64,000 nucleotides of DNA from a virus, in the IMG/VR virus record IMGVR_UViG_3300001765_000052; one strand, written 5' to 3'. The notes under the pieces are model-generated. The model worked only from the letters and a program-made list of their open reading frames with translations, ran no database searches and was not told the origin of the DNA. The first letter of the stretch is position 1. Each line of letters starts with the position of its first letter. A program made the position numbers and the translations under genes. Below are positions 2,299-41,332 of this stretch, one piece after another.

Positions 2299-2912
2299 AG
2301 ATATTATCTTACTTAAAAGAAAAAATAGTATTGACTATAGGCAAGATAGAGTGGAAAACTAATAAAGTAATTCCAGATACTGAACTAATAAAAATACATA
2401 ATTTATTAGAAGATAATTATTGTATTATCTTAACTAGGAGATCTAATCATCTATCTACTTTTTTTGTTGGTTTAGCTGATTTCTTATTAACATGTAAATG
2501 GGGTTATTGGTCTCATGTATTAATGAATTTAGAAGACGAACTAAAATCAGTAGATGATTTTAGATTAGTTGAAGCTACTGGAACTGGTGTACATTATACT
2601 CCTTTCGAGAAAGTATTTAATGTTCAATCTGTTGCAATATTAAAACCAAAAACATTAGATTTAGAAAAATGGACAAGTTTAGTAGATGTAGTTAAATTAC
2701 AAATTGGTAAACCGTACGATACAATGTTTAATATTAAGGATTCATCTAAACTTAGTTGCATTGAATTAATACGTGTGGTTTTACAACATGAACCAAATTA
2801 CTATGAAGATTTCAAAAATTTTGAAAAGTTAATTCATAGATACAAGAACATTTCACCGCAAATGTTATTTAATTGTGGTGATTTTGATATAGTGTATCTA
2901 TTAAAAGTTTAG
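2295..2912 (+). CDS. Permuted NlpC/P60 (YiiX/YebB-like) papain-fold enzyme
   Basis: WSHV His precedes GKPYD and LSCIEL Cys, the permuted catalytic order. Confidence 0.65.
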   Translation: MKILSYLKEKIVLTIGKIEWKTNKVIPDTELIKIHNLLEDNYCIILTRRSNHLSTFFVGLADFLLTCKWGYWSHVLMNLEDELKSVDDFRLVEATGTGVHYTPFEKVFNVQSVAILKPKTLDLEKWTSLVDVVKLQIGKPYDTMFNIKDSSKLSCIELIRVVLQHEPNYYEDFKNFEKLIHRYKNISPQMLFNCGDFDIVYLLKV

Positions 2913-2950
2913 TCATAATACTCACTACTAAAAAGTAGTGAGTATTATGA
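2913..2950. terminator. Hairpin between convergent genes
   Basis: 17-bp perfect stem tcataatactcactact / agtagtgagtattatga. Confidence 0.7.
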
Positions 2951-2966
2951 TTTACTATATTTTCAT

Positions 2967-3362
2967 TTATGCTTGTGTTAACGTAATAGGGAAAGTACTT
3001 AAATAATGTACCCCATTGTAATCTACATCAATAATTGCTGTATCGCTTGCGCCTAGTGCACTAGAATCCCAATTAAATGAAAATGTATATTCTATATGAT
3101 TCGTAGAATTATTACCAAAAATTACATCTTCACCATAGAATCCCGGTATACTAACTTGATCAATATAAGGCGACATAGTTCCATCAATAATATTTCTACC
3201 ATATAAATCAAAATTATTTCCTGGTGTATGTTTATACGTCCAAGCCATATATGTAACTGTAGAATTATCTGGTATACCAGATGTTTCTATTGTTACTGTT
3301 AATACGTCATTAGGTAAAGTAGTTGTTTTACTTGGAATAATACTAATAATTGTTGGAACTAT
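2967..3362 (-). CDS. C-terminal extension (-1 frame) of the 3359-3880 gene
   Basis: The 93-aa ORF frame is open upstream to 3362 (IVPTIISIIPSKTTTLPNDVLTVTIETSGIPDNSTVTY), abutting the AAA AAA TAG end of the upstream ORF. Confidence 0.55.
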   Translation of the reverse strand: MVPTIISIIPSKTTTLPNDVLTVTIETSGIPDNSTVTYMAWTYKHTPGNNFDLYGRNIIDGTMSPYIDQVSIPGFYGEDVIFGNNSTNHIEYTFSFNWDSSALGASDTAIIDVDYNGVHYLSTFPITLTQA

Positions 3363-3880
3363 TTTTTCTGAATTGTTACTAATTTATCAATAATAGGTAA
3401 TGCATTATTATCATTTGACCAGGCTCTAAACCAAAAATATTCTACTTCTGCTGTAGATGTCCTAGGCATCATTGCAGTTTCAATACTAGCATAATTATCA
3501 ATTATTTTAACAGCCGAACCACTACTAATAGTAAAATCGTTATTAGAACTGGGTTGATAACTATTAGCATCTGTTTCTGATATATTAGTTATAAACCAAT
3601 TTATTGTTGCCCCATCGTCTATATCAGTTGTACTTATTTCAAATATAACTGGTGTAATTAAATCAACATCGTTAACGAGTAAATCTCTAGGTGACCAATA
3701 TTTTACAGTTTCCCATCCTGATGTCTTTATGTTACCTGGATAATTACTAGTATATTGATATACATCTTCATCTAAAAATACTAATGCATCTTTAATAGCT
3801 ACCATGTCATTAATACGTAAATCGGGTGATGTAGCTCCAGGAATTGGATATCCTAAATTTGCTGAGGTTGTAACTGGCAT
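3359..3880 (-). CDS. Paralog 3 of small tail-fibre-like family
   Basis: N-terminus MPVTTSANLGYPIPG...D..AIKDALVFLD shared with two neighbours. Confidence 0.6.
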   Translation of the reverse strand: MPVTTSANLGYPIPGATSPDLRINDMVAIKDALVFLDEDVYQYTSNYPGNIKTSGWETVKYWSPRDLLVNDVDLITPVIFEISTTDIDDGATINWFITNISETDANSYQPSSNNDFTISSGSAVKIIDNYASIETAMMPRTSTAEVEYFWFRAWSNDNNALPIIDKLVTIQKK

Positions 3881-3897
3881 AATAAATCCTTTTTAAT

Positions 3898-4416
3898 TTA
3901 AATTTGATAATATAATTCGTATTCGACAGTAAACCAATCTATATTAATTTCTACACCATTAGAAATTGCTACAGAAACATCAAAATAACAAACTGGGTCA
4001 CTGTTTGATAAATGCGTAACTGATATATTAGCTACCCCTTTATTATCAGATATTACTGCATCTGAACTATTAACAACATAAGCTACTTGAGTAGCAATTG
4101 ATTGATGAAGTTTAGTATTTGGACTAGTTATACTCCATTGTAATGGGGTACCATCTGGAACATTTACAGTGCGCACAATAAGAATTAAATTATTTGATAT
4201 AGATGTACTTAAATTCATTCTAGTATCAACATCGCATTCAATTCTAAGTATTTTAGCTACTGAAAAAGGGACTACATTATTTTCAATGTAAGTACCTACT
4301 ACATTATCTAAAAAAACTAATGCGTCTTGTATTGCAATTAAATCTTCGTGACGATTATCGCCTTCTATGGATCCAGGAATTTGATATCCTAAGTTTAATG
4401 AGGTTGTAACTGGCAT
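3898..4416 (-). CDS. Paralog 2 of small tail-fibre-like family
   Basis: MPVTTSLNLGYQIPG...AIQDALVFLD; Ig-like VRTVNVPDGTPLQWSI unit. Confidence 0.6.
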   Translation of the reverse strand: MPVTTSLNLGYQIPGSIEGDNRHEDLIAIQDALVFLDNVVGTYIENNVVPFSVAKILRIECDVDTRMNLSTSISNNLILIVRTVNVPDGTPLQWSITSPNTKLHQSIATQVAYVVNSSDAVISDNKGVANISVTHLSNSDPVCYFDVSVAISNGVEINIDWFTVEYELYYQI

Positions 4417-4445
4417 GATAATATCCTTATATTTTAGTAATTAAT

Positions 4446-4922
4446 TTAACTATTTGTAACAATGTTATCAGTGGATATACTACTAGATGATCCATAATTT
4501 TTTACAGTAGCTTTCAATGAAAACAAAAAATAGCCGGGATAATTTCTAGTTGGAGAATATGTAATCTCAAAAACATTATCAGATACCATAGCTAAACCTG
4601 CATTAGACACATAATGATTAGGTCGTGGATTTTCTTCACTATAATATAATTTTAAAACTATATCATCTTTATTAGTTATATTACTTGTATTTATAGTAAA
4701 TACAACGTCATCAATAATATTATAAACCCATTTATCTGCAGTAATACTAATAATCTCTTTAAAAGTAGCCCTTCTAATAGCATCATTTGTTTTAAAAACA
4801 CTCCACCTTTCGTCTAATACTATTAAAGCGTCTTTAATAGCAACTATATCATTCAACCTATTATCTGTAAGCTCTGCTCCAGGTAATGGGTATTGCATAA
4901 TAACCGATTGCGATACTGGCAT
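4446..4922 (-). CDS. Paralog 1 of small tail-fibre-like family
   Basis: Start moved to MPVSQS (4922) by paralog alignment and aaaggtg RBS. Confidence 0.6.
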   Translation of the reverse strand: MPVSQSVIMQYPLPGAELTDNRLNDIVAIKDALIVLDERWSVFKTNDAIRRATFKEIISITADKWVYNIIDDVVFTINTSNITNKDDIVLKLYYSEENPRPNHYVSNAGLAMVSDNVFEITYSPTRNYPGYFLFSLKATVKNYGSSSSISTDNIVTNS

Positions 4923-5016
4923 AACTGCACCTTTAAAAAATATTAACGTTTTACACATATCATGTTTGATATTTTTAGCTTTCTAAGTAAGAAAATTTTA
5001 CAGTTTATATAAAGAT

Positions 5017-7242
5017 TTACCAATATTTTTTACCTGCTAAAGCAATATCACTCAATCCGTCTACAATTAAATTATTTGGGTTATAATTATATCCAATTTT
5101 ATCATAGTAACTTTGACCATAACTTGTTTTAATTGTATTCTTATTTTTACCAATTTTAGCTTCATTAATGATGGCATCTACGGAATAATATTCACCATCC
5201 TCTAGTATAATTTTAGAATCTAAATAACGTAATTCATTTTCTATTTTACTAGCTATTGCAGTATCTTCTTCTTCTTTTAATTTTTCGTATAATTCTTCTA
5301 TACGTGCTCTTATGTTATCTTGCTCGATTTTAAAATAAGCTTGTTCTGGTGCTATATTAATCTTTTGTTTATGTTCAACTAAAATTTGACGAGAATCTAT
5401 GCCATAAAAATTTAAATTTTTTCCCATTGTTAATAACCAATTGCATAACAAATACCCAATTACCAAATCATCGTGACCACCAATATCATGATCAATTCTA
5501 CCATTTCTTATAACCAAACTTGCTATCTGTTCAGTAAGCGCTCTATCTTTAATTTTATCAGCACACCTTCTTGCTGCATTTTGTAATGTAATAGAATATA
5601 ATTCAGCGCGGCTAGTAGCTCCATTTGCACTGGTAGCAAAACCAAAATATTTTTTAGCCCTCACATATAAATCATCTTTTCGTCTTCTTAGTGGTAGATT
5701 TGCTTCCTCGTATATACTTCTTTGTTCTAATGGGTCATTAACAATCCAATTAAATAATCTTTTAAATGGATCAATACCGCGTTGTGGAAGAAATAAAAGT
5801 AAATAATCTATAATTGTCGAACCTGTTGATCTTCTTTCGATGATCATTGTAGAATTTATATATTCGGCTAATATATAAACAAGCCACTGTGAAAAAGTAA
5901 TTAAATTCGTTTCGTTAAATGTACCTATAGCAATCAATGCACCAGTTTCCACATCTTGCATTACAAATGAAATATCGTCCCCACCAGAAGCATCACTGGT
6001 ATCAATTCCAATTACAGTTTTCCTATTTGACATATACTTAGAAATATCTTCTTTTGGTATATACCATCTAAGTATATATCCACCAATAGGATTAACTTGT
6101 TGATACTTTTCACTTTCTATGCATGACGCCATTATTTCTAATATAGAAATAGGTATTGGTGATGTTTGTGTACCACTTGACCACGCACAAAAATAATCTC
6201 TATTTGCATCATCTGGAGATTGATTAGATCGGTCTAATTGTTTCTTTAACCATTCATCTGTTTTACCTAATTGCTTATGGTTGAAAACACCGTATATACG
6301 ATAAGCACCTTTACGAGAATTAGAACAAACCATATGCATTAATTCTTCTTTATTTTTTGCATCAAAAAAATTTTCGCTCCAAACAGCTGACTCTTGTGCA
6401 TAATTATAAACATACTTACCTTCGGGTGTATCTTTTTTACCAGCAGTTGTAGTTAAAATAACACCATACGGTTCATTTAATTCCTCGGCTCTATCACACG
6501 CTGCACCCATTGCTGCTAATAATGCACCCATGGATATATTAATGTTAGGTTGAAAAGGTGATTCATCAATATGTACAATTGGCGTTGTTAATCCTCTACC
6601 AATATTGTACGCTCTTTTAGGTGACGCTTGTGGTACATGTGTAAGATATTTATTACCAAATCTATTAATAGTGAGCGCCTCTGTGTTATTAGCGTCTTCT
6701 CTTGTTTTAAAATTTAAATAAGTTGGTAACTCATCATAAATATTTTTTAATCTATTAATATTGTCGGTTCTAAGAGTATCATCTTTAGTAAGTAAATTAA
6801 TCTGTGTGTTCGTACATAAGAAATTTAAAAGTGCCGTCATAAGTAAATCAGTTGAAAATGATTTACCTGTTTGCCGAGGTTGTATTAATATAAATGTAAT
6901 ATGGTTAAAAAAACTCCACCATAAAGCTATGTTACCTCTATTAGCTTCTACCATAGATGGTTCATTACCTGCAGTCGCTGGCGCTCTTAGAACTTCTCTA
7001 ACTATATACCAAAAATTTGTTCGACATTCTACACCTATCATCATCATTTGCTCTACAGTCAAATCTGGATCATATGGATCTACACCTTGTAGTTTTGGGT
7101 TATGTAAAGATAACATGAATGAATTATTTTCAATTCCCATGTGTTTATATAAAGTAGCTAATCTAACAAAACTTTTATTCTTAGTTTCTGTATCTATAAT
7201 GGAATTAGAATAGTTTAACCAGTCATCTTTAAATAATATCAT
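5017..7242 (-). CDS. terL: Terminase large subunit (phiKZ-type)
   Basis: Walker A PRQTGKS, Walker B VHIDE, coupling motif LTTTAG, nuclease IGIDTS and HDDLVI. Confidence 0.9.
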   Translation of the reverse strand: MILFKDDWLNYSNSIIDTETKNKSFVRLATLYKHMGIENNSFMLSLHNPKLQGVDPYDPDLTVEQMMMIGVECRTNFWYIVREVLRAPATAGNEPSMVEANRGNIALWWSFFNHITFILIQPRQTGKSFSTDLLMTALLNFLCTNTQINLLTKDDTLRTDNINRLKNIYDELPTYLNFKTREDANNTEALTINRFGNKYLTHVPQASPKRAYNIGRGLTTPIVHIDESPFQPNINISMGALLAAMGAACDRAEELNEPYGVILTTTAGKKDTPEGKYVYNYAQESAVWSENFFDAKNKEELMHMVCSNSRKGAYRIYGVFNHKQLGKTDEWLKKQLDRSNQSPDDANRDYFCAWSSGTQTSPIPISILEIMASCIESEKYQQVNPIGGYILRWYIPKEDISKYMSNRKTVIGIDTSDASGGDDISFVMQDVETGALIAIGTFNETNLITFSQWLVYILAEYINSTMIIERRSTGSTIIDYLLLFLPQRGIDPFKRLFNWIVNDPLEQRSIYEEANLPLRRRKDDLYVRAKKYFGFATSANGATSRAELYSITLQNAARRCADKIKDRALTEQIASLVIRNGRIDHDIGGHDDLVIGYLLCNWLLTMGKNLNFYGIDSRQILVEHKQKINIAPEQAYFKIEQDNIRARIEELYEKLKEEEDTAIASKIENELRYLDSKIILEDGEYYSVDAIINEAKIGKNKNTIKTSYGQSYYDKIGYNYNPNNLIVDGLSDIALAGKKYW

Positions 7243-22971: not shown

Positions 22972-24858
22972 ATGGCTATCAATGATCCGTCTAACAATTA
23001 TGTACAACCAATTGTGCAAAATATGCAAAATACTAATCAAAACACTACACAAAATAATAATCAATCAGCACCTGTCCAAACACGGTCAATGTCTTTTTTA
23101 AGAATGGGGACTGTAGGTGGGTTGTCGCGTACACCTACTGCTGAGATTCTACTTAAAGCTATGAACGCTTTAAACGAAGAAGCTAAGCGAATCGTAGAAA
23201 ATCCATGGGAAGTTTCATTGCTCCCTATGGATAATGCCAAGGAAACCAACTTGGCATTCAGTGGTATTATTATTGCTGTTCGTAGAACCGATGCAGTTAA
23301 ATCTGTAGGCGTTTGCTATCATACACTTATCTTGGAAGGTTCTGGGGAACCTCTAACGCCACGCATAGAACATTACGATGGACAACAGATTGAAGTAATT
23401 CGGGCAACTGGTGATGCATTCGATGAGATTTATAAAAAATGTGTACATGACGCGGTTACAAAAGCTTTTCCAGGTGTCATTTGTAATGTGCAGCATACAC
23501 AAGTAGTTCCACGGCATTTTGATTTTGAAAATAAAGATGCTGTACATACATTATTATTAAATGCACAATTACCGTGCTACACGTATCTCGAAACAAGGTC
23601 AGCAGGGTTTACAGATATGAACTTGACTTTGTTTGAACGTGATTCAACATTAGCAGTAAGGATTGGTTTTAACGAACCACAGAAAACAGATTACGCTGGA
23701 CTTCCTGTACGCAACGACATCAATATCACATTGAGCGCTAACTCTAATAATAGGAATAACCAACTATCAGCTGTAAATACACAAGAGCGTAGTGTCAGTA
23801 TTGCAAGCACAGGTGGATACATTGATCCAATCTGGGCTCCGCCTAATAATAATCCTTATAATACAGCGCCTCAACCAAAATTTGCGGCCAGATTCGTTAT
23901 TACAAACATGGAGAATGTAACACAAACAACTGCTGCATCTCAATTACTTGCACTGGTATCAAGTTTGATCCTTAATGAAAACGACAATTGGTACCCATAT
24001 TTTCTACCGCGACCACAAACTGTCAACAGTAAAAGTGGTGTTGATTTACGTGACATTGGTGCAATTAATATCGAAGGTAATTTCCGTAATAACACTGACG
24101 GTTACGATGTATTCGTTGATACCAAAGCTGCTTCATTTACACCGAAGGAACTGTGGCATCTAATTAAATGTACATTTATTCCAGGTATCCATTTCTCACT
24201 TCGTGTTAGCGAATGCGGTGCGGACACATGGTATAATGCACCATTCTTAGCAGCGGCAATGAACGATAAGAATGCTATTGCTTCTATTTTACATGGTGCT
24301 AATGTTTTAACTGGTCAAGTGTTTGGTCAATTCTACGGGACAAATGAATCACCAGTGTTAATTAATAATGAACGTGTGCATCTGGGATATTATACGGGTA
24401 GCGACGGTACGAAACGTGACATCGCTGACATCGATTATCTTGCTGTTATGAATAAGGCAGGTAAAACAGATCCACGTGTTGGTGCAAGATGGACTAATTC
24501 ATTCTTACGAGCATCATTAGAACCATCTTCAATTAACATGTGCCTAGCCGACCGTAAAAAGATGATCGAAGATGTCGTGGGTACAGATGTTACATATACT
24601 GGATTTGCAAGAATTGTTACATTTACAAATAGATTTACTAAAGCACTATCAGATGCTTGTATTCAGGTTGGGTTGGATATTCGTACTATCAATTCCAATA
24701 TGAATGGTACACAGTACATGCAACGTTCAAGCGCTAATTTTGTGAATCAAGTTCAAATGAATCCTAATTCTTCTGGGATTTTTAACCAAGGTTATAATAA
24801 CCAGTTTAATGGATACCAACCACCAAACATTTACCAAGGGGTAAATTCCTGGATGTAA
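22972..24858 (+). CDS. chmA: Chimallin, nuclear shell protein (phiKZ gp54-like)
   Basis: 628 aa, immediately upstream of the nvRNAP beta' gene, early promoter and strong RBS; LRDIGAINIE, HLGYY and RDIADIDYLA motifs. Confidence 0.8.
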   Translation: MAINDPSNNYVQPIVQNMQNTNQNTTQNNNQSAPVQTRSMSFLRMGTVGGLSRTPTAEILLKAMNALNEEAKRIVENPWEVSLLPMDNAKETNLAFSGIIIAVRRTDAVKSVGVCYHTLILEGSGEPLTPRIEHYDGQQIEVIRATGDAFDEIYKKCVHDAVTKAFPGVICNVQHTQVVPRHFDFENKDAVHTLLLNAQLPCYTYLETRSAGFTDMNLTLFERDSTLAVRIGFNEPQKTDYAGLPVRNDINITLSANSNNRNNQLSAVNTQERSVSIASTGGYIDPIWAPPNNNPYNTAPQPKFAARFVITNMENVTQTTAASQLLALVSSLILNENDNWYPYFLPRPQTVNSKSGVDLRDIGAINIEGNFRNNTDGYDVFVDTKAASFTPKELWHLIKCTFIPGIHFSLRVSECGADTWYNAPFLAAAMNDKNAIASILHGANVLTGQVFGQFYGTNESPVLINNERVHLGYYTGSDGTKRDIADIDYLAVMNKAGKTDPRVGARWTNSFLRASLEPSSINMCLADRKKMIEDVVGTDVTYTGFARIVTFTNRFTKALSDACIQVGLDIRTINSNMNGTQYMQRSSANFVNQVQMNPNSSGIFNQGYNNQFNGYQPPNIYQGVNSWM

Positions 24859-24949
24859 TGAGCATATATTAAAATGACAAAACATGTGTTCTAATATTAG
24901 AACACATGTTTTTGTTATTAAAAGATATTTTTTAATAAAGGAAGTTGAA

Positions 24950-26179
24950 ATGGGTGTCTATTTAGCATTGCAAAATAATGACGAAATATTTAATAGATCA
25001 ATAGTAACACCAATTATTATTAACGATCTCAACACTGCCACACAAGCCGATAGAGATTATATTGATAAGCTGATATCAACTAGTTATGAAACTGATATGC
25101 TTAGCAATGAGCCGTCATGTGCATGTGGACAAATCACTGGTGGGTTTGAGTTAAACGTAATTTGCCCAAATTGTAAGACAAGTGTTAAAGAAATATTTGA
25201 TCAAGAATTGCAAACACATGTATGGATGAGAGCCCCTAATGGTGTACGTAAATTTATAAACCCTATGATACTAACACAGTTAAGTGTTAGATTTACAAAA
25301 TCTAAATTTAATTTAATCGAATGGCTTTGTAATACAGATTATCAACCAAATGTTAATAGACCTGATGAATTAGGGCTATTAATTGATTTGGGTGTAAAAA
25401 GAGGATACAATAATTTCATTGATCATTTTGACGAATATATAGATATTTTGTTTTCGCTTAATAGACCAAAGTTAAAAAAAGATATTGAAGAAGATTTACA
25501 AAAACATATCCGAATAAATAGAGATAAGTGTATGAGTTGGCATTTACCATTACCAAACAAATCTTTATTGGTAATAGAAAAAACAGAAGTAGGTATATTT
25601 GTGGATCCGATTGTAGTTGGTGCAATTGATGCAATTAGAACAATGTGTGGAATTGACACAAAACTAATAAATTTTACACAAAAACAAAAAGAAAATCGGG
25701 CAGCAAAAACATTATTTATTCTATGTGAATTTTGTAATGATATTTACCACGATATTTTGTCAAGTAAAAACGGTTTGTTTCGGAAACATATTTTTGGTAG
25801 CAGAAATTATTTTTCAGCGAGGACAGTTATATCGTCTAATACCAAGATACACAAGTACGATGAACTACATATATCTTGGGGTGTAGGTGTCACCATGTTA
25901 AAAATACATTTAACAAATAAGTTATTAAAACTAGGGTGGGTTCCGAATAATATATTTGGTTTACTACAAGAATCTTCGTATAAGTACAATGAATTACTTG
26001 ATAACTTATTCAATGAATTAATCAGAGAAAATCCAGAGGGTGGTATACCAACAGCTTGGGGTAGAAATCCTTCACTTTCTCGTGGATCACTTCAAAAAAT
26101 GAGAATAACAAAAGTTAAAACAGATGTAGATGATCCAACAATCACTATGTCTATATTAGCTGTTAAAGCTTATAATGCT
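24950..26179 (+). CDS. Non-virion RNAP beta' subunit (gp55-like), exon 1
   Basis: Zn finger CACG..CPNC, GLFRKHIFGSR, GRNPSL; ends at YNA, the start of NADFDGD. Confidence 0.9.
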
Positions 26180-27607
26180 TAACGTATAATTAAAACCTTG
26201 AACACATATGTTATGAATAATAAACATAGGTGTTACATGAATAATAGAGTATATAAAACTGATATAAAAGAATGTGAAGAAAAACTAGGTTTTTATTATT
26301 TAAATGAAAATTTAATAATAAATAAAAACTCTGACATATTTGATTTAAATTCAAACGAATTTTGTATTCAAAAAGAAAATGCAATAGGGTATAAGCTTTT
26401 TAATAACAAGTTAGTTCATATTTTAATGTGTGAAACGTTTTTAGTTAAACCCGAATCTGATCATATAGGTAAAGTGTTTGTAAATCACATTAATGGAATT
26501 AAAAATCAAAACCAATTAGATAACCTAGAATGGTGCACGCCTCAATATAATTGTAATCATGCGTATGAGAATGATTTAAGAACAGATAACATACGTGTAT
26601 TAGTTAAAGATTTATTAACAAATGAAATCACAGAATATCGCAGTTTATGGGCTTGTGCTAAAGCAATGAATTTAAATGGTTCACATATTTGGCACTGGAT
26701 TCAACCAAAACAATACGGTATTATAAAATTAGATCATTATTTGTTTATAAAAAAAGGTCAAGATTGGCCTATTGTAAATATAAATAATGCTAATGAATAT
26801 AAAAACGGTGATTCTAAAAAAGTTATATTAATCGATGATTTAAATAAAGTGTATTTATTTAAATCAATGTCCTCAATAAAAGATTACATTGATATTAATA
26901 TTGGTACATTTGCAATTATGAAAAGATTGAGAACAGCTAAAGAAAAAGGATTAGCTTATTGCACAATTGATAATTATAAATTAATGTATTTAAATGATTA
27001 TAAAGATTATAAGTTAGAAAATACGATAACTTTACCACAAAAAAGATTTCGTGGTAATACCGTATCCCCTAGAAAGCAATATAAATTAAATGTTACTGAT
27101 TTAAATACAGGTAATATAAGAATTGTTGAATCTAGCGATACTCTAGCTAAAGAACTTAATATCAGTAGACGTACCTTAATGAATAGAATCTTCCATAAAA
27201 AAGGAAGAATAAATAATTATTATATCGAATACATTCGTTAGTTTTATATACTCTGTTAAAAAAGGAAATAATTATACAAGGCTACTATGTTAGTAATGAC
27301 ATATGTAAAATCCATTGAATTGCTGGGATAACTTGTTAAACTCATTAACTACTACTAATCGAAAGGTGAAGCGAATGTTTGAAAATAATGAGGTAGAGTC
27401 AATCAGCAGCTAAGATCCTAAGGTAGTAAAATCACATATTACTACTATGGATAAAGTTCAACGACTATCCCGTAAGGGAGTAGGGGTTAGTAATCCCGAA
27501 GCAGTGGACCCCTAGTAATAGGGTGAAGATATAGTCTGTTCTATATGGAGACGTATAGCAGGTGTCATAACACACCGGGTTAGATTAACGACCTAACTGG
27601 ACAAAAG
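26180..27607 (+). mobile_element. Group I intron 1 in beta' with an HNH gene in the P1 loop
   Basis: Exon ends in U; gtataat (26184) pairs with attatac, followed by aaggc (27271-27282) giving the U.G splice pair; core motifs aattgctggga, aatcagcagc, gttcaacgacta, aagatatagtct; terminal G. Confidence 0.88.
26198..27241 (+). CDS. Intron-encoded HNH homing endonuclease
   Basis: VNHINGIKNQNQLDNLEWCTPQYNCNHA; C-terminal NUMOD1-like helix-turn-helix units. Confidence 0.88.
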   Translation: MNTYVMNNKHRCYMNNRVYKTDIKECEEKLGFYYLNENLIINKNSDIFDLNSNEFCIQKENAIGYKLFNNKLVHILMCETFLVKPESDHIGKVFVNHINGIKNQNQLDNLEWCTPQYNCNHAYENDLRTDNIRVLVKDLLTNEITEYRSLWACAKAMNLNGSHIWHWIQPKQYGIIKLDHYLFIKKGQDWPIVNINNANEYKNGDSKKVILIDDLNKVYLFKSMSSIKDYIDINIGTFAIMKRLRTAKEKGLAYCTIDNYKLMYLNDYKDYKLENTITLPQKRFRGNTVSPRKQYKLNVTDLNTGNIRIVESSDTLAKELNISRRTLMNRIFHKKGRINNYYIEYIR

Positions 27608-27619
27608 GATTTTGACGGT
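27608..27619 (+). CDS. beta' exon 2: 12-nt micro-exon encoding DFDG
   Basis: gat ttt gac ggt lies between the terminal G of intron 1 and P1 of intron 2; completes NA-DFDG-D. Confidence 0.88.
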
Positions 27620-27935
27620 AAATTTACCTGCCGTGACTAAACTTTCTAATTGCTGGAAACTCTCGTTAGACTAATATACCAAAGCAGATAGCGAAAGCTA
27701 AGATGTGATGAATTCAGGTTTGAAAAATATTAGGTAGAGACAATCAGCCCCTAAGTTCCTCTATGTAGAAATGCAGTGGAAAAAGGCCAACGACTAGAGC
27801 GTAGGCTCGTACACTCAAGTGAGTGGAAACGGAAGTTACTATTAAATATAGTAAAGATATAGTCTGTTCTATATAGAAATATATAGCTGTATTAATTATA
27901 CGGGATAGGATTAACGAACCTATTTGAACACAAAG
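27620..27935 (+). mobile_element. Group I intron 2 in beta', ORF-less, 316 nt
   Basis: P1 acggu/gccgu (27630-27634) with U.G; aattgctggaaactc, aatcagc, caacgactaga, aagatatagtct; ends acacaaag. Confidence 0.88.
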
Positions 27936-28163
27936 GATCAGATGAATATGATTTTAGCAATGGATAATGTAACTAGTAAACAACTTGAAACATTAGCTCC
28001 GCATAAAAACATGTTTAATTTAAATTCACCAAGAACTTTATCAAAAGCAGCTTCATTACCGAAACCAGTAGTGTCGACTATTAGCAACTGGTTAAATTAC
28101 AAGGATGATTATGTAGAGCCGAATGCAGAAGAGTATAATTTTCTACTGGAATTAAGTGTGTAA
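27936..28163 (+). CDS. beta' exon 3
   Basis: Begins DQMNMIL, matching DFDGD.M.; continues LAPHKN. Confidence 0.88.
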   Translation, partial: DQMNMILAMDNVTSKQLETLAPHKNMFNLNSPRTLSKAASLPKPVVSTISNWLNYKDDYVEPNAEEYNFLLELSV

Positions 28164-28172
28164 AGGATATTT

Positions 28173-28808
28173 ATGGAATATGCATTCCCGGTCAATAATT
28201 TTAGCGCAGATAGAGACTTTGATGCGTTTGTGTATCCGGAAACGCATCCGTCGACTTTAAATTACCTCAGAGATAAGTTTGATAACCTTAGCCAAACATT
28301 AACAGAACCTGCTCGTGTATTTATGCAAAAAGGTAGAGATTTATTTGAAAGTTTCAATAGCAGTGAAGCTATGCAGTATGCAAGGAATTTAGCAAATAAA
28401 TTTAATTCATCGAATAATATACAATTTGATAATGTTAAGCTACTGTATGGTTTAAATCAGTTTCAGAATGCAGGATTAGTTTCACAACGATGGATAATGG
28501 CCAATCCTGTTATTCGAGAAATGTATCACAATCAAAAAATAGATGGCTATAGTAATACATATGTGGATGTAGAACCAAACAATATAAAGGATAATCATTA
28601 CGATTACAAATGCGTAATGGATGGAATATTACAGGACACAGATGATGGCGGATACAAAATTGTTAGATATTTTAACGATTTAAAAGAAGGTGATCGTGAA
28701 CTTTCGTTAGATGAAAAAAGCGACATATTGAGATCGTGGAAAAATTTAGAGTATTTAGTTTTGCTATGCAAAGATGACCCAACTGGTCAACCTGGAGATT
28801 ATTTATAA
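28173..28808 (+). CDS. Conserved phiKZ-like hypothetical protein
   Basis: QRWIMANP..R.MY..Q..DGYS..Y and DDPT motifs; synteny. Confidence 0.55.
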   Translation: MEYAFPVNNFSADRDFDAFVYPETHPSTLNYLRDKFDNLSQTLTEPARVFMQKGRDLFESFNSSEAMQYARNLANKFNSSNNIQFDNVKLLYGLNQFQNAGLVSQRWIMANPVIREMYHNQKIDGYSNTYVDVEPNNIKDNHYDYKCVMDGILQDTDDGGYKIVRYFNDLKEGDRELSLDEKSDILRSWKNLEYLVLLCKDDPTGQPGDYL

Positions 28809-39468: not shown

Positions 39469-41332
39469 TTGGCATTTTTATAAATTGATGAATTTAGGTA
39501 TATAGTATGTGTCAATAAATAAAGGACGCATATGAAATGCCTAATTGAAAATACTTACTTCAAAAGTATTCCAGGAAACACAGAATTATTGATTTCGATC
39601 GAGAAGCGGTTTGTGACTTATGATCTCAAACCTTGTGATATTCACATTGATAGTAATGGATTTGTGAATATAGAGATGTTCGGAATAATAAGGAAAGTAG
39701 ATGTTTCTTGGTTAAAACTAATAGCACATTTTGAAGTAAATTTACCTGAAAAATTCCACGAATATACTTTCCGAATTAACTTCATAAACGCAGGCAAAGG
39801 CATGATTAGGGCAACAATTAATTCGACAATGGTATTTTCAAACCCTATATTAATTCAAAATAAATATAGGATAATACCTAATTTTACGGATTACGCAATC
39901 AGTAAAGAATCAGAATTAATTGATGTTCACTTTTATCGTATTGTGCCTAGGTTTAATCGCGGGTCTTTTAATTACCCTGAAGTTTTTATATATTGTCCAG
40001 ATAAGAATTCATACAAACATATTAAAGTTCACAGATTGGTAGCATTGGCTTGGGTTAAAAATAGAGATTTCTTAACCCAACCAATAGTGAATCATATCGA
40101 CGGTAATAAACAAAATAACCATTACTCTAATTTAGAATGGTGTAGTTCGTCACATAACAGTAAGCACGCGTACACATTAGGATCATATGCAATCAACAAA
40201 CCATGTAAGGTAAAAAATCATCTTACAGGGGAAGTATCGCACTTTGTTTCTTTAATGGACGCTAGTAAATTTATTGGACTAAAACACTATCTCAATTCTA
40301 AAATGTTAAAAAAGGGCGCTAAGCCTAGACTTTTAAATAGATACTACGAAGTAAAAGAAATGTCCGACGACGATGTAAATTGGTATTATGATAAACTTAA
40401 GGCAGCATCTTTAGATGAAGCTTTTAGTTTATTGATAAAAAATGATAAAAACGTAGTCGGCATTTTTCATAGTCTAGAAAAAGCAAAAAACTTTTTTAAT
40501 ATGGAGGATAAAAATCTAAATGTTTTTGAATTAATAAATGCAATTGAAAAATTGCATCCAACATATGTAATTAATTACATTGACAATTATTACTTTGAAC
40601 CAATTGAATGTAAAGATTTAGTAACTGGTGATGTATTCTGCGCAGCTACCTGGGTGGACTTACAAACAATGTTAAAAATTAAAACAGATTTGGCTTCTTA
40701 TAATAAATTAATTAAAACTTTTGGACAAATAAAGTATAAGCAATGGTTATTTCGTTATAAATCAGATGCGCCTTGGGATGTTAACGCAAAAGGTGTTGGT
40801 GTTAGAGGAAACAAAATAACGGCTACAAACACAATGAGTGGTGAAGTAGTTGAATTTGATTCTTTAGTAAATGCCGTCGATTACTTTAATGTAGATGTTA
40901 AAACGATTCTAAGAAGACTTAATAATTCGGAAAAGAAGTACAATGGTTGGGTTTTTCAGGGTGAAACAAATAATCAATTTGCAAAAATAAAAAAGCCTCT
41001 GTCCAAAGGACAGAAATATCCCTTAATTGACGGGAAACCCTTTATAGCCTCATGCACCAACTTATCCTAGGAATAGAGATAAGGGCTGAATTAACTACTC
41101 AGATATGGTAAAAGATATGAGGATTAGGCAATCCGCAGCTGAGCTCCCAGAACGGGAGAGAGTTCAACGACTAACCCCTTACCAGGGTGTAGAGCCAAGT
41201 GGCTCGAAACAGGGAAATTCATTATTAATGAATAAGATATAGTCTGGTCTGTATGGTGACATACAGAAGCTTAGTCGCTCGTGAGAGCCGCTGTAGCTGG
41301 GTGGGCTTAACGAACCTACTTGAACACAAACG
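39469..41332 (+). mobile_element. Group I intron in RNAP beta with HNH gene
   Basis: Exon ends in U; ggu|uu pairs with aagcc (40993-40997); aattgacgggaaa, aatccgcagc, gttcaacgacta, aagatatagtct; splicing gives HGG|KGTI. Confidence 0.85.
39532..41070 (+). CDS. Intron-encoded HNH homing endonuclease
   Basis: VHRLVALAW..IVNHIDGNKQNNHYSNLEWC..HN..HA; several NUMOD1-like units. Confidence 0.88.
   Translation: MKCLIENTYFKSIPGNTELLISIEKRFVTYDLKPCDIHIDSNGFVNIEMFGIIRKVDVSWLKLIAHFEVNLPEKFHEYTFRINFINAGKGMIRATINSTMVFSNPILIQNKYRIIPNFTDYAISKESELIDVHFYRIVPRFNRGSFNYPEVFIYCPDKNSYKHIKVHRLVALAWVKNRDFLTQPIVNHIDGNKQNNHYSNLEWCSSSHNSKHAYTLGSYAINKPCKVKNHLTGEVSHFVSLMDASKFIGLKHYLNSKMLKKGAKPRLLNRYYEVKEMSDDDVNWYYDKLKAASLDEAFSLLIKNDKNVVGIFHSLEKAKNFFNMEDKNLNVFELINAIEKLHPTYVINYIDNYYFEPIECKDLVTGDVFCAATWVDLQTMLKIKTDLASYNKLIKTFGQIKYKQWLFRYKSDAPWDVNAKGVGVRGNKITATNTMSGEVVEFDSLVNAVDYFNVDVKTILRRLNNSEKKYNGWVFQGETNNQFAKIKKPLSKGQKYPLIDGKPFIASCTNLS

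Follow-up and report, generated by a model that had tools for sequence, protein, structure and literature searches.

The nvRNAP beta'-N gene of the phage studied here is cut twice within the codons of NADFDGD, the Mg-binding motif, leaving an exon of only 12 nt between two group I introns. The locus raises the question of how two ribozymes so close together can both be removed from one message, and how such a pair persists and moves. In the window, the whole stretch of 64,000 nt from the IMG/VR virus record IMGVR_UViG_3300001765_000052, the most probable answer (about 85%) is that two separate td-like mobile group I introns lie 12 nt apart, each removing itself, and that the pair forms a composite homing element.

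Gene context and exon structure

The phage is classed as a chimallivirus by its predicted chimallin gene, and the order of the chimallin and nvRNAP genes matches that of phiKZ gp54-gp55. The nvRNAP beta'-N gene, the homologue of phiKZ gp55, adjoins the chimallin gene downstream and consists of three exons and two introns. The features are as follows, a caret marking an insertion point.

22972..24858, + strand: chimallin (phage nucleus shell) gene; Pfam PF25677, E 3e-34
24950..26179, + strand: exon 1 of nvRNAP beta'-N; PHROG 2987 E 2e-129, profile positions 1-417
26180..27607 (1428 nt), + strand: intron 1, group I, inserted at NA^DFDG, with an HNH gene inside
26177..26199, + strand: 5' strand of P1 and its extension, intron 1; GCU^U 26177-26180, GUAUAAUUA 26184-26192, CCUU 26196-26199
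26237..27241, + strand: predicted homing-endonuclease gene of HNH/NUMOD1 type, 334 aa, within the P1 loop of intron 1; PHROG 59 E 7e-23
27262..27282, + strand: 3' strand of the P1 extension and internal guide sequence, intron 1; AAGG, UAAUUAUAC 27269-27277, AGGC 27279-27282
27608..27619, + strand: micro-exon GATTTTGACGGT, coding for DFDG of NADFDGD
27620..27935 (316 nt), + strand: intron 2, group I without an ORF, inserted at DFDG^D
27936..28163, + strand: exon 3, 75 aa and stop; PHROG 2987 profile positions 422-476

The longest reading frame of exon 1 begins at 24884; homologues begin with MGVYLAL, which corresponds to 24950. Exon 1 ends in ...AVKAYNA, its last codon, GCT, ending at 26179, and matches approximately 300 jumbo phages by tblastn, as well as the relatives L003 and L004. 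Exon 3 opens with GATCAGATG at 27936 (DQM), continues as DQMNMILAMDNV... and was aligned with the C-termini of L003 and FLC9 gp381. On the RNAP subunit profile PHROG 2987 the two exons leave a gap of exactly four positions, which is DFDG.

Sequences that lack the introns define the joins, and thus both intron borders are fixed unambiguously. Relative L003 (70% identical) has an uninterrupted gene with the NADFDGD motif unbroken. A contig from another metagenome (run X4) joins 26179 to 27936 through the 12 letters GATTTTGATGGT, which match the micro-exon at 11 of 12 positions, and its exon 1 part has no mismatch in 104 nt; this allele is a single 157-nt contig of depth 3.9, from a run whose status as DNA is a guess. 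The site without introns reads AAAGCTTATAATGCTGATTTTGATGGTGATCAG. Contigs from two samples that span 27292-27747 and 27297-28700 show zero differences from the window, so the twin-intron layout is not an artefact of assembly.

Two group I ribozymes

Both introns exceed the gathering score of 50 for Rfam RF00028. Intron 1 matches at 27263-27558 over the full model, positions 1-253 (83.1 bits, E 1e-19), and compensatory changes occur in 22 of 84 predicted pairs among three orthologues. It opens with an in-frame TAA codon and closes with omega G, G27607. The P7-P9 region is approximately 72% identical to the T-even td introns. P7.1 and P7.2 (UCCC-GUAA-GGGA, GGGGUU..UCCC) are present and both covary in L157 and L004. 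By these predicted extra helices between P7 and P3', intron 1 is placed in subgroup IA as a td-like intron. L004 and L157 share the GGCUACUAU element with intron 1, along with a P2 hairpin that covaries.

The U.G pair of intron 1 is U26179.G27280, within GCUU/AGGC. A P1 of only 3-4 bp had been considered for this intron and was dropped, since cofolding gave a 9-bp extension that closes P1 across the 1.07-kb endonuclease gene. Cofolding of the 5' strand with 27262-27282 yields -14.5 kcal/mol for P1 and this clamp, a value reached by 1 of 500 shuffles. ATAATTA, first taken for a direct repeat left by ORF insertion, proved by the same cofolding to be one arm of an inverted repeat of 9 bp that lengthens P1. 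In the window, intron 1 has a marginal P10 (-1.0 kcal/mol), and its guide pairs with only three exon bases.

Intron 2 matches the full RF00028 model at 27572-27886 (76.2 bits, E 1e-17), and 36 of 60 pairs carry compensatory changes among eight site-2 introns. Its predicted P1 hairpin pairs 27615-27620 with 27629-27634 (ACGGU.A/U.GCCGU), the U.G pair being U27619.G27630 within ACGGU/GCCGU, and its last nucleotide is omega G, G27935. The site-2 guides vary among relatives (GCUGUC, GCCGUC), with pairing kept. Self-splicing of both introns is an activity that we infer from these features.

The gene within intron 1 has AGGTG 4 nt ahead of its ATG. Its protein matches PHROG 959 (E 4e-14) besides PHROG 59; in Pfam, NUMOD1 scores above its cut-off (E 2e-7) and HNH_3, at 20.1, stays below its cut-off of 24.8 (E 5e-4), with the motif VNHINGIKNQNQLDNLEW...NCNHA visible. 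The HNH motif and the NUMOD/HTH tail identify the putative product as an I-HmuI-like HNH homing endonuclease. A sequence search of the PDB returned no solved relative.

An earlier note, made from the letters of the window, had assembled NADFDGD from three exons, and all of its coordinates hold. It was also right in reading an HNH frame in intron 1 and in taking both introns for genuine group I introns, each with a U.G pair in P1; the covariance model it had proposed as a check for intron 2 accepts that intron.

Recurrence and relation to known systems

The earlier note also called for a survey of homologues, and the twin introns indeed recur. L004/L160 and L157/L161, two related phages, share the NA^DFDG^D pair with the window, and three contigs that are more distant, L020, L069 and L102, have it as well. 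A metagenome scan with a clade-specific pattern returned only L160, which is the L004 sequence, and L161, which is the L157 sequence. Contig L031, which resembles Goslar, has a site-1 intron and an intron after DFDGDA; it was dropped as a 12-nt case, as comparison with Goslar gives an 18-nt exon, DFDGDA. The loci of L031, L069, L102 and Goslar have no RF00028 match at the gathering threshold and were assigned by reading core motifs and splice borders.

Among themselves, site-1 introns show 78-84% identity and site-2 introns 74-76%, whereas intron 1 of the window is only 70-72% identical to its intron 2. Identity within a site thus exceeds identity between the two introns, which argues for two site-specific lineages, and recent duplication of one intron was rejected for the clade of the window by the same identity matrix. 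In L031 the two introns resemble each other (75%) more than any other intron, and recent duplication is possible there.

Close relatives, of which few genomes are available, carry both introns or neither. The endonuclease gene is in intron 1 in the window, in intron 2 in L004, in neither intron in L157, and absent in L020. Introns at site 2 only are common, indicating that the site-2 intron can also move or persist alone. Introns at site 1 only may exist in IMG/VR: among the matches listed for the pattern TAACGA..GGAYTTYGAYGG, most were due to chance, and after a GATATAGTC core filter only twin loci were left among them.

The earlier note had correctly named an intron in the same gene of phiKZ as a precedent, and two are found in KTN4/phiKZ, after HRN^ and at N^ADFDGD. 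HNH-bearing introns in phiKZ gp55, the nvRNAP beta'-N gene, are attributed to Mesyanzhinov 2002 and Ceyssens 2014 by PMC10914365 and PMC11512511, and mature phiKZ gp55 contains 417-DFDGD-421 (PMC8287921). In phiKZ, ONT-cappable-seq found no splicing (PMC10914365). The gene, its place after chimallin and the intron family are the same as in the window. In its P1 loop the second KTN4/phiKZ intron has a gene for a 334-aa HNH protein homologous to that of the window (27% identity over the full length, E 2e-19). However, the phiKZ introns are approximately 110 nt apart and ADFDGD stays with the downstream exon, whereas insertion at NA^D and G^D in the window isolates four codons.

Two cultured chimalliviruses likewise have this gene cut twice within the motif, at different insertion points. 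In Pseudomonas phage vB_Pae3705-KEN49 (PP456877) the split is N^ADFDGD^Q, the exon is 18 nt long and Rfam gives three matches. Escherichia phage Goslar (NC_048170) is split as NADF^DGDA^M, with an exon of approximately 13 nt as read from the sequence. Neither record annotates the exon structure, and no paper describing the motif-splitting introns of KEN49 or Goslar was found.

Short exons between group I introns have precedents in Twort orf142 and in mitochondrial micro-exons. In Staphylococcus phage Twort, introns 2 and 3 of orf142 flank an exon of 23 nt (Landthaler and Shub 1999, as summarised in PMC10136302). As in the window, a phage gene has tandem group I introns of subgroup IA2 with a very short exon between them. 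The two Twort introns closely resemble each other and exon skipping occurs, whereas those of the window have different guides and hardly a helix in common, and the exon of the window is 12 nt and holds catalytic residues. Placozoan mitochondrial cox1 has a 1-nt micro-exon between group I introns (PMC5436844). As in the window, two independent introns flank an exon shorter than a normal P1/P10 partner that encodes an essential residue. However, cox1 is organellar and without a homing context, whereas the window is viral, with a bacterial host, an endonuclease and presence/absence polymorphism.

Splicing of the twin introns

In the favored reading, two separate T4-td-like mobile introns would have settled in the most conserved codons of the gene, at NA^DFDG and DFDG^D, each folding alone and excising itself. 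The intron 1 guide AGGC would reach GCU^U over the 1.07-kb endonuclease gene by means of the clamp helix, and the intron 2 P1 hairpin would use the last five bases of the micro-exon locally. In favor of this reading, the guides of L020 and L102 are canonical, a 6-bp P10 with GAUUUU standing beside a 7-bp P1. Double splicing would yield ...YNA-DFDG-DQM..., a complete subunit of 489 aa. The layout, the conserved ribozymes, the joined exons and their recurrence are observed in sequences; the independence and the order of the two reactions, like joint mobility, are what we infer.

It is possible, but unlikely, that splicing is ordered and interdependent, the ribozymes competing for the 12-nt exon such that one finishes before the other folds. 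The P10 of intron 1 and the P1 of intron 2 would abut directly with no linker, and two ribozyme cores docked on 12 contiguous nt could clash sterically. However, the pairings do not support the view of the earlier note that the two ribozymes necessarily share the 12 nt. They use adjacent halves: the 3' half, ACGGU (27615-27619), serves intron 2, and the 5' half, GAUUUU (27608-27613), serves the P10 of intron 1 where there is one. Since different bases are paired, no base-pairing conflict forces an order. Moreover, neither exon join alters the guide pairing of the other intron, and the intron 1 P10 is nearly absent in the window.

Regulated exon skipping, in which exon 1 is joined to exon 3 and a full-length subunit without DFDG poisons the polymerase, is highly improbable. 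As the earlier note had correctly calculated, with both introns in phase 0 and a 12-nt exon of four codons, skipping would delete DFDG in frame; PMC10136302 gives Twort orf142 and engineered tandem Tetrahymena introns as precedents for skipping. However, the guides differ (AGGC with GCU^U, GCCGU with ACGGU) and neither fits the exon of the other, while P3, P5, P6, P7.1, P7.2, P8, P9.1 and P9.2 differ in sequence between the two introns. Such differences in helices and guides favored exon inclusion in the engineering study (PMC10136302). That the locus is decaying, one intron no longer splicing and the gene a pseudogene, is barely credible. P4/P6 of intron 2 depart from the family consensus (CAGCCCC versus CAGCAGC), but the partner strand has changed to match (GGCC versus GUUC) and P6 is kept. 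Furthermore, nvRNAP is essential in the chimallivirus family, and both exons and ribozyme helices are conserved in relatives.

Mobility and significance

The 12-bp micro-exon is too short as a recombination arm, so the pair would act, as DNA, like a single composite homing element driven by one HNH nuclease, here from intron 1. The co-conversion suggested in the earlier note fits the both-or-neither distribution in close relatives and the placement of the endonuclease in intron 1, intron 2 or neither. A wider proposal, held tentatively at slightly less than even odds, is that one endonuclease in either intron necessarily mobilizes both. The eight codons around NADFDGD, with at least six insertion points, would be an arena for competing introns of co-infecting nucleus-forming phages, and 12 nt would be as short as such an exon can be in practice, with 6 nt needed for P10 of the upstream intron and 6 nt for P1 of the downstream one. 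Intron competition between co-infecting nucleus-forming phages has been shown for PhiPA3 gp210 (PMC11620839).

The locus shows how densely selfish introns can pack into one active site: the universal Mg-binding loop of multisubunit RNA polymerase sits on an exon barely recognizable by two ribozymes. Gene callers overlook the micro-exon, and public phage records therefore list such subunits as truncated proteins or as hypothetical ones. In nucleus-forming phages transcription is apart from translation, and splicing in T4 depends on ribosomes; given this separation, splicing in nucleus-forming phages cannot rely on ribosomes. The arrangement offers a naturally occurring case for asking how exon skipping is avoided by tandem ribozymes, whether an intron without an ORF can hitch-hike obligatorily on the endonuclease of its neighbor, and how introns of co-infecting nucleus-forming phages compete. 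KEN49 and Goslar are cultured and have an equivalent layout, which makes the arrangement testable.

Architecture of the interrupted polymerase gene

The window, which originates from a microbial-mat metagenome, encodes chimallin, which makes up the shell of the phage nucleus, indicating that its source is a phiKZ-like nucleus-forming giant phage. The gene after chimallin is homologous to phiKZ gp55, which supplies the N-terminal part of beta' in the non-virion RNA polymerase (nvRNAP; PHROG 2987, E 2e-129). It matches approximately 300 jumbo phages by tblastn, the best being Burkholderia phage FLC9 (46%). The features of this region are:

22972-24858, chimallin gene, upstream of the gp55 homologue (Pfam PF25677, E 3e-34)
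26180-27607, intron 1 (site 1, NA|DFDG)
26237-27241, HNH gene of 334 codons, within the predicted P1 loop of intron 1
27608-27619, micro-exon (DFDG)
27620-27935, intron 2 (site 2, DFDG|D)
27936 onward, exon 3

The exon 1 frame runs to ...AVKAYNA and stops immediately at 26180-26182, and a 75-codon frame opening with DQMNMILAMDNV picks up again at 27936. The 1756 bases between the two frames contain GATTTTGACGGT at 27608-27619. Intron 1 itself opens with this in-frame stop, TAA, so that unspliced RNA would yield a subunit cut off exactly before the catalytic aspartates.

At the level of sequence, the exon joins are fixed by four independent lines. Exon 1 covers positions 1-417 of the PHROG profile and exon 3 positions 422-476, leaving four positions between them. 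The gene is uninterrupted in the related IMG/VR contig L003 (protein 70% identical; ...KAYNADFDGDQMNIIL...) and likewise in FLC9 gp381. A 157-nt contig from X4, a freshwater metagenome run, passes from exon 1 (104 nt, 0 mismatches) through GATTTTGATGGT into exon 3, connecting 26179 to 27936 via 12 letters, 11 of which equal the micro-exon. Since the one difference is a synonymous base, this contig stems from another strain with neither intron; the allele is represented by one contig of low depth, and its run is taken as DNA by guess, and were the run RNA, the contig would be a spliced message. Finally, all four borders are unshiftable given the flanking bases. An assembly artefact is ruled out by contigs from two samples, which cover 27292-27747 and 27297-28700 with 0 differences.

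Both intervening sequences are td-like group I introns

Rfam RF00028 matches intron 1 at 27263-27558 (83.1 bits) and intron 2 at 27572-27886 (76.2 bits), in each case covering the full model (gathering score 50). Alignment shows the two to be homologous to each other, to two gp55 introns of phiKZ/KTN4 and to a third intron in the window. P7-P9 of both are approximately 72% identical to T-even td introns, and both carry P7.1 and P7.2, which places them in the td-like subgroup IA. Among site-1 introns of three orthologues (the window and the related contigs L157 and L004), 22 of 84 predicted pairs have changed on both strands yet still pair; among eight site-2 introns the figure is 36 of 60. Selection on RNA structure is thus visible in both. 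The single oddity of intron 2, CAGCCCC versus CAGCAGC in the family, is offset on the partner strand by GGCC versus GUUC.

The third group I intron of the window (39484-41331; Rfam match 40944-41266, 72 bits) splits the nvRNAP beta gene between ...TDIHGG (exon end near 39483) and KGTICQLASSEEMPMDADGN. Its 512-aa HNH gene (ORF 39532-41070) lies ahead of the ribozyme core, an ORF-first arrangement like that of intron 1.

The predicted P1 of intron 2 is a local hairpin, ACGGU|A (27615-27620) with U-GCCGU (27629-27634), including the U27619.G27630 pair; relatives have the guide GCUGUC or GCCGUC, with pairing retained. Intron 1 pairs only GCU of the exon with its guide, GGC (27280-27282). When its 5' end was cofolded with sequence 3' of the endonuclease gene, the predicted P1 (-14.5 kcal/mol, matched by 1 of 500 shuffles) comprised GCUU/AGGC, a small internal loop, a perfect 9-bp helix (26184-26192 with 27269-27277) and then CCUU/AAGG. 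Such a clamp would place the HNH gene in the P1 loop, with the guide reaching the splice site over 1.07 kb. Similarly, the phiKZ N|A intron has its guide, GUUGGG, directly 3' of the stop codon of its HNH gene, whose 334-aa product is a full-length homologue of the intron 1 HNH protein (27% identity, E 2e-19).

Use of the micro-exon by the two ribozymes

An earlier note proposed that both ribozymes must use the same 12 nt and that splicing may consequently be ordered. Instead, the micro-exon appears to be split into two adjoining halves. In the more distant contigs L020 and L102, the upstream intron has a canonical guide in which six bases, AAGAUU or AAAAUU, pair as P10 with the first half of the micro-exon, GAUUUU, and seven P1 bases directly adjoin. 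The remaining half, GACGGU or GAUGGU, forms P1 with the downstream intron. P10 of intron 1 in the window is marginal (-1.0 kcal/mol). No base-pairing conflict would impose an order of splicing; steric interference between the two cores, which would dock on abutting helices, is possible.

The same note's frame arithmetic holds, the 12-nt micro-exon being four codons long and the two introns both phase 0. Skipping of the micro-exon, which it raised, is possible but unsupported. There are real precedents: in Twort orf142, two IA2 introns that closely resemble each other flank a 23-nt exon that is skipped, and a 24-nt exon is skipped in engineered tandem Tetrahymena introns (PMC10136302). However, the guides of introns 1 and 2 read different exon ends, and P3, P5, P6, P7.1, P7.2, P8, P9.1 and P9.2 are unlike in sequence, differences of the kind that favoured exon inclusion in the engineered-tandem study (PMC10136302).

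Distribution and mobility

Besides the window, L004 (same sequence as L160), L157 (same as L161), L020, L069 and L102 carry the NA|DFDG|D pair around a 12-nt exon. In L031 a site-1 intron is followed by another after DFDGDA, so that the exon between them is 18 nt long. A site-2 intron alone, with NADFDG intact upstream, is present in at least 10 IMG/VR contigs, often with an HNH gene behind the core; no locus with a site-1 intron alone was found among the matches listed.

Within the window's clade, site-1 introns are 78-84% mutually identical and site-2 introns 74-76%, whereas within a single phage the two introns share only about 70% identity. This indicates two site-specific lineages, passed on or transferred together. 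Recent duplication of one intron in this clade is ruled out by the same identities.

Among close relatives, L004 and L157 contain both introns, and L003 and the X4 allele contain neither. The window has its endonuclease gene in intron 1 and L004 in intron 2, and both introns of L157 and of L020 are without one. At 12 bp, the exon is too short to act as a homology arm. Together these observations fit a composite element, in which both introns may be carried by one nuclease. Such an element would be a stronger form of the earlier note's suggestion that intron 2 may spread by co-conversion with the intron 1 nuclease.

Additional insertions were observed in the gene. On the reverse strand of L161, an insertion at 5028-6568 with a 434-aa ORF follows ...NPSLVRG and precedes the twin introns; this gene would then have four exons. 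L004 (7116-7470) and phiKZ/KTN4 (L002 3049-4286) share an intron site after ...GRN / ...HRN, approximately 110 nt upstream of the motif, that is absent from the window. In L102 and L069 (reverse strand), the second intervening sequence after the micro-exon is without the AATTGCTGG and GATATAGTC motifs and had no Rfam match. The exon that follows is apparently just GATAAAAAGCCTTACAGATAA (DKKPYR, stop), and the subunit would finish six residues past the motif.

Related arrangements in cultured phages

In GenBank, the N|A intron occurs in phiKZ, KTN4, SL2 and others, and the D|Q intron in PA7, Brmt, W10-2, fnug, OMKO1 and PS119XW. Only Pseudomonas phage vB_Pae3705-KEN49 (PP456877; L159) has both, and between them lies:

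L159 4591-4608, 18-nt exon GCTGATTTTGACGGAGAT (ADFDGD)

The KEN49 gp55 gene (2761-4996) contains three introns (Rfam 89, 76 and 76 bits), the third with the P1 pairing GGAGAU/GUCUCC. A premature TAA stop replaces the GAA of KTN4 at codon 18 of the HNH gene in its N|A intron, and the record annotates only hypothetical proteins in the gp55 region. Escherichia phage Goslar (NC_048170, 3750-5565) reads as NADF|DGDA|M, cut inside the Phe codon and again after DGDA; the exon, CGACGGTGACGCT, would be about 13 nt, flanked by an HNH-bearing and an ORF-less intron. RefSeq annotates one Intron_gpI there, and the gene had no Rfam match at the gathering threshold. Pooling all cases, a stretch of eight codons holds six insertion points: N|A, NA|D, one inside the F codon, G|D, D|Q and A|M.

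That phiKZ gp55 contains introns is already documented (PMC10914365, PMC11512511), and a cryo-EM structure was made with spliced gp55 protein (PMC8287921). Group I introns are also known to flank short exons, of 23 nt in Twort, 34 nt in Coxiella and down to 1 nt in mitochondria (PMC10136302, PMC5436844). A literature search found no paper on an RNA polymerase catalytic motif borne by a micro-exon. A catalytic motif on a micro-exon introduces no new principle, but it is a solid, neat and testable finding.
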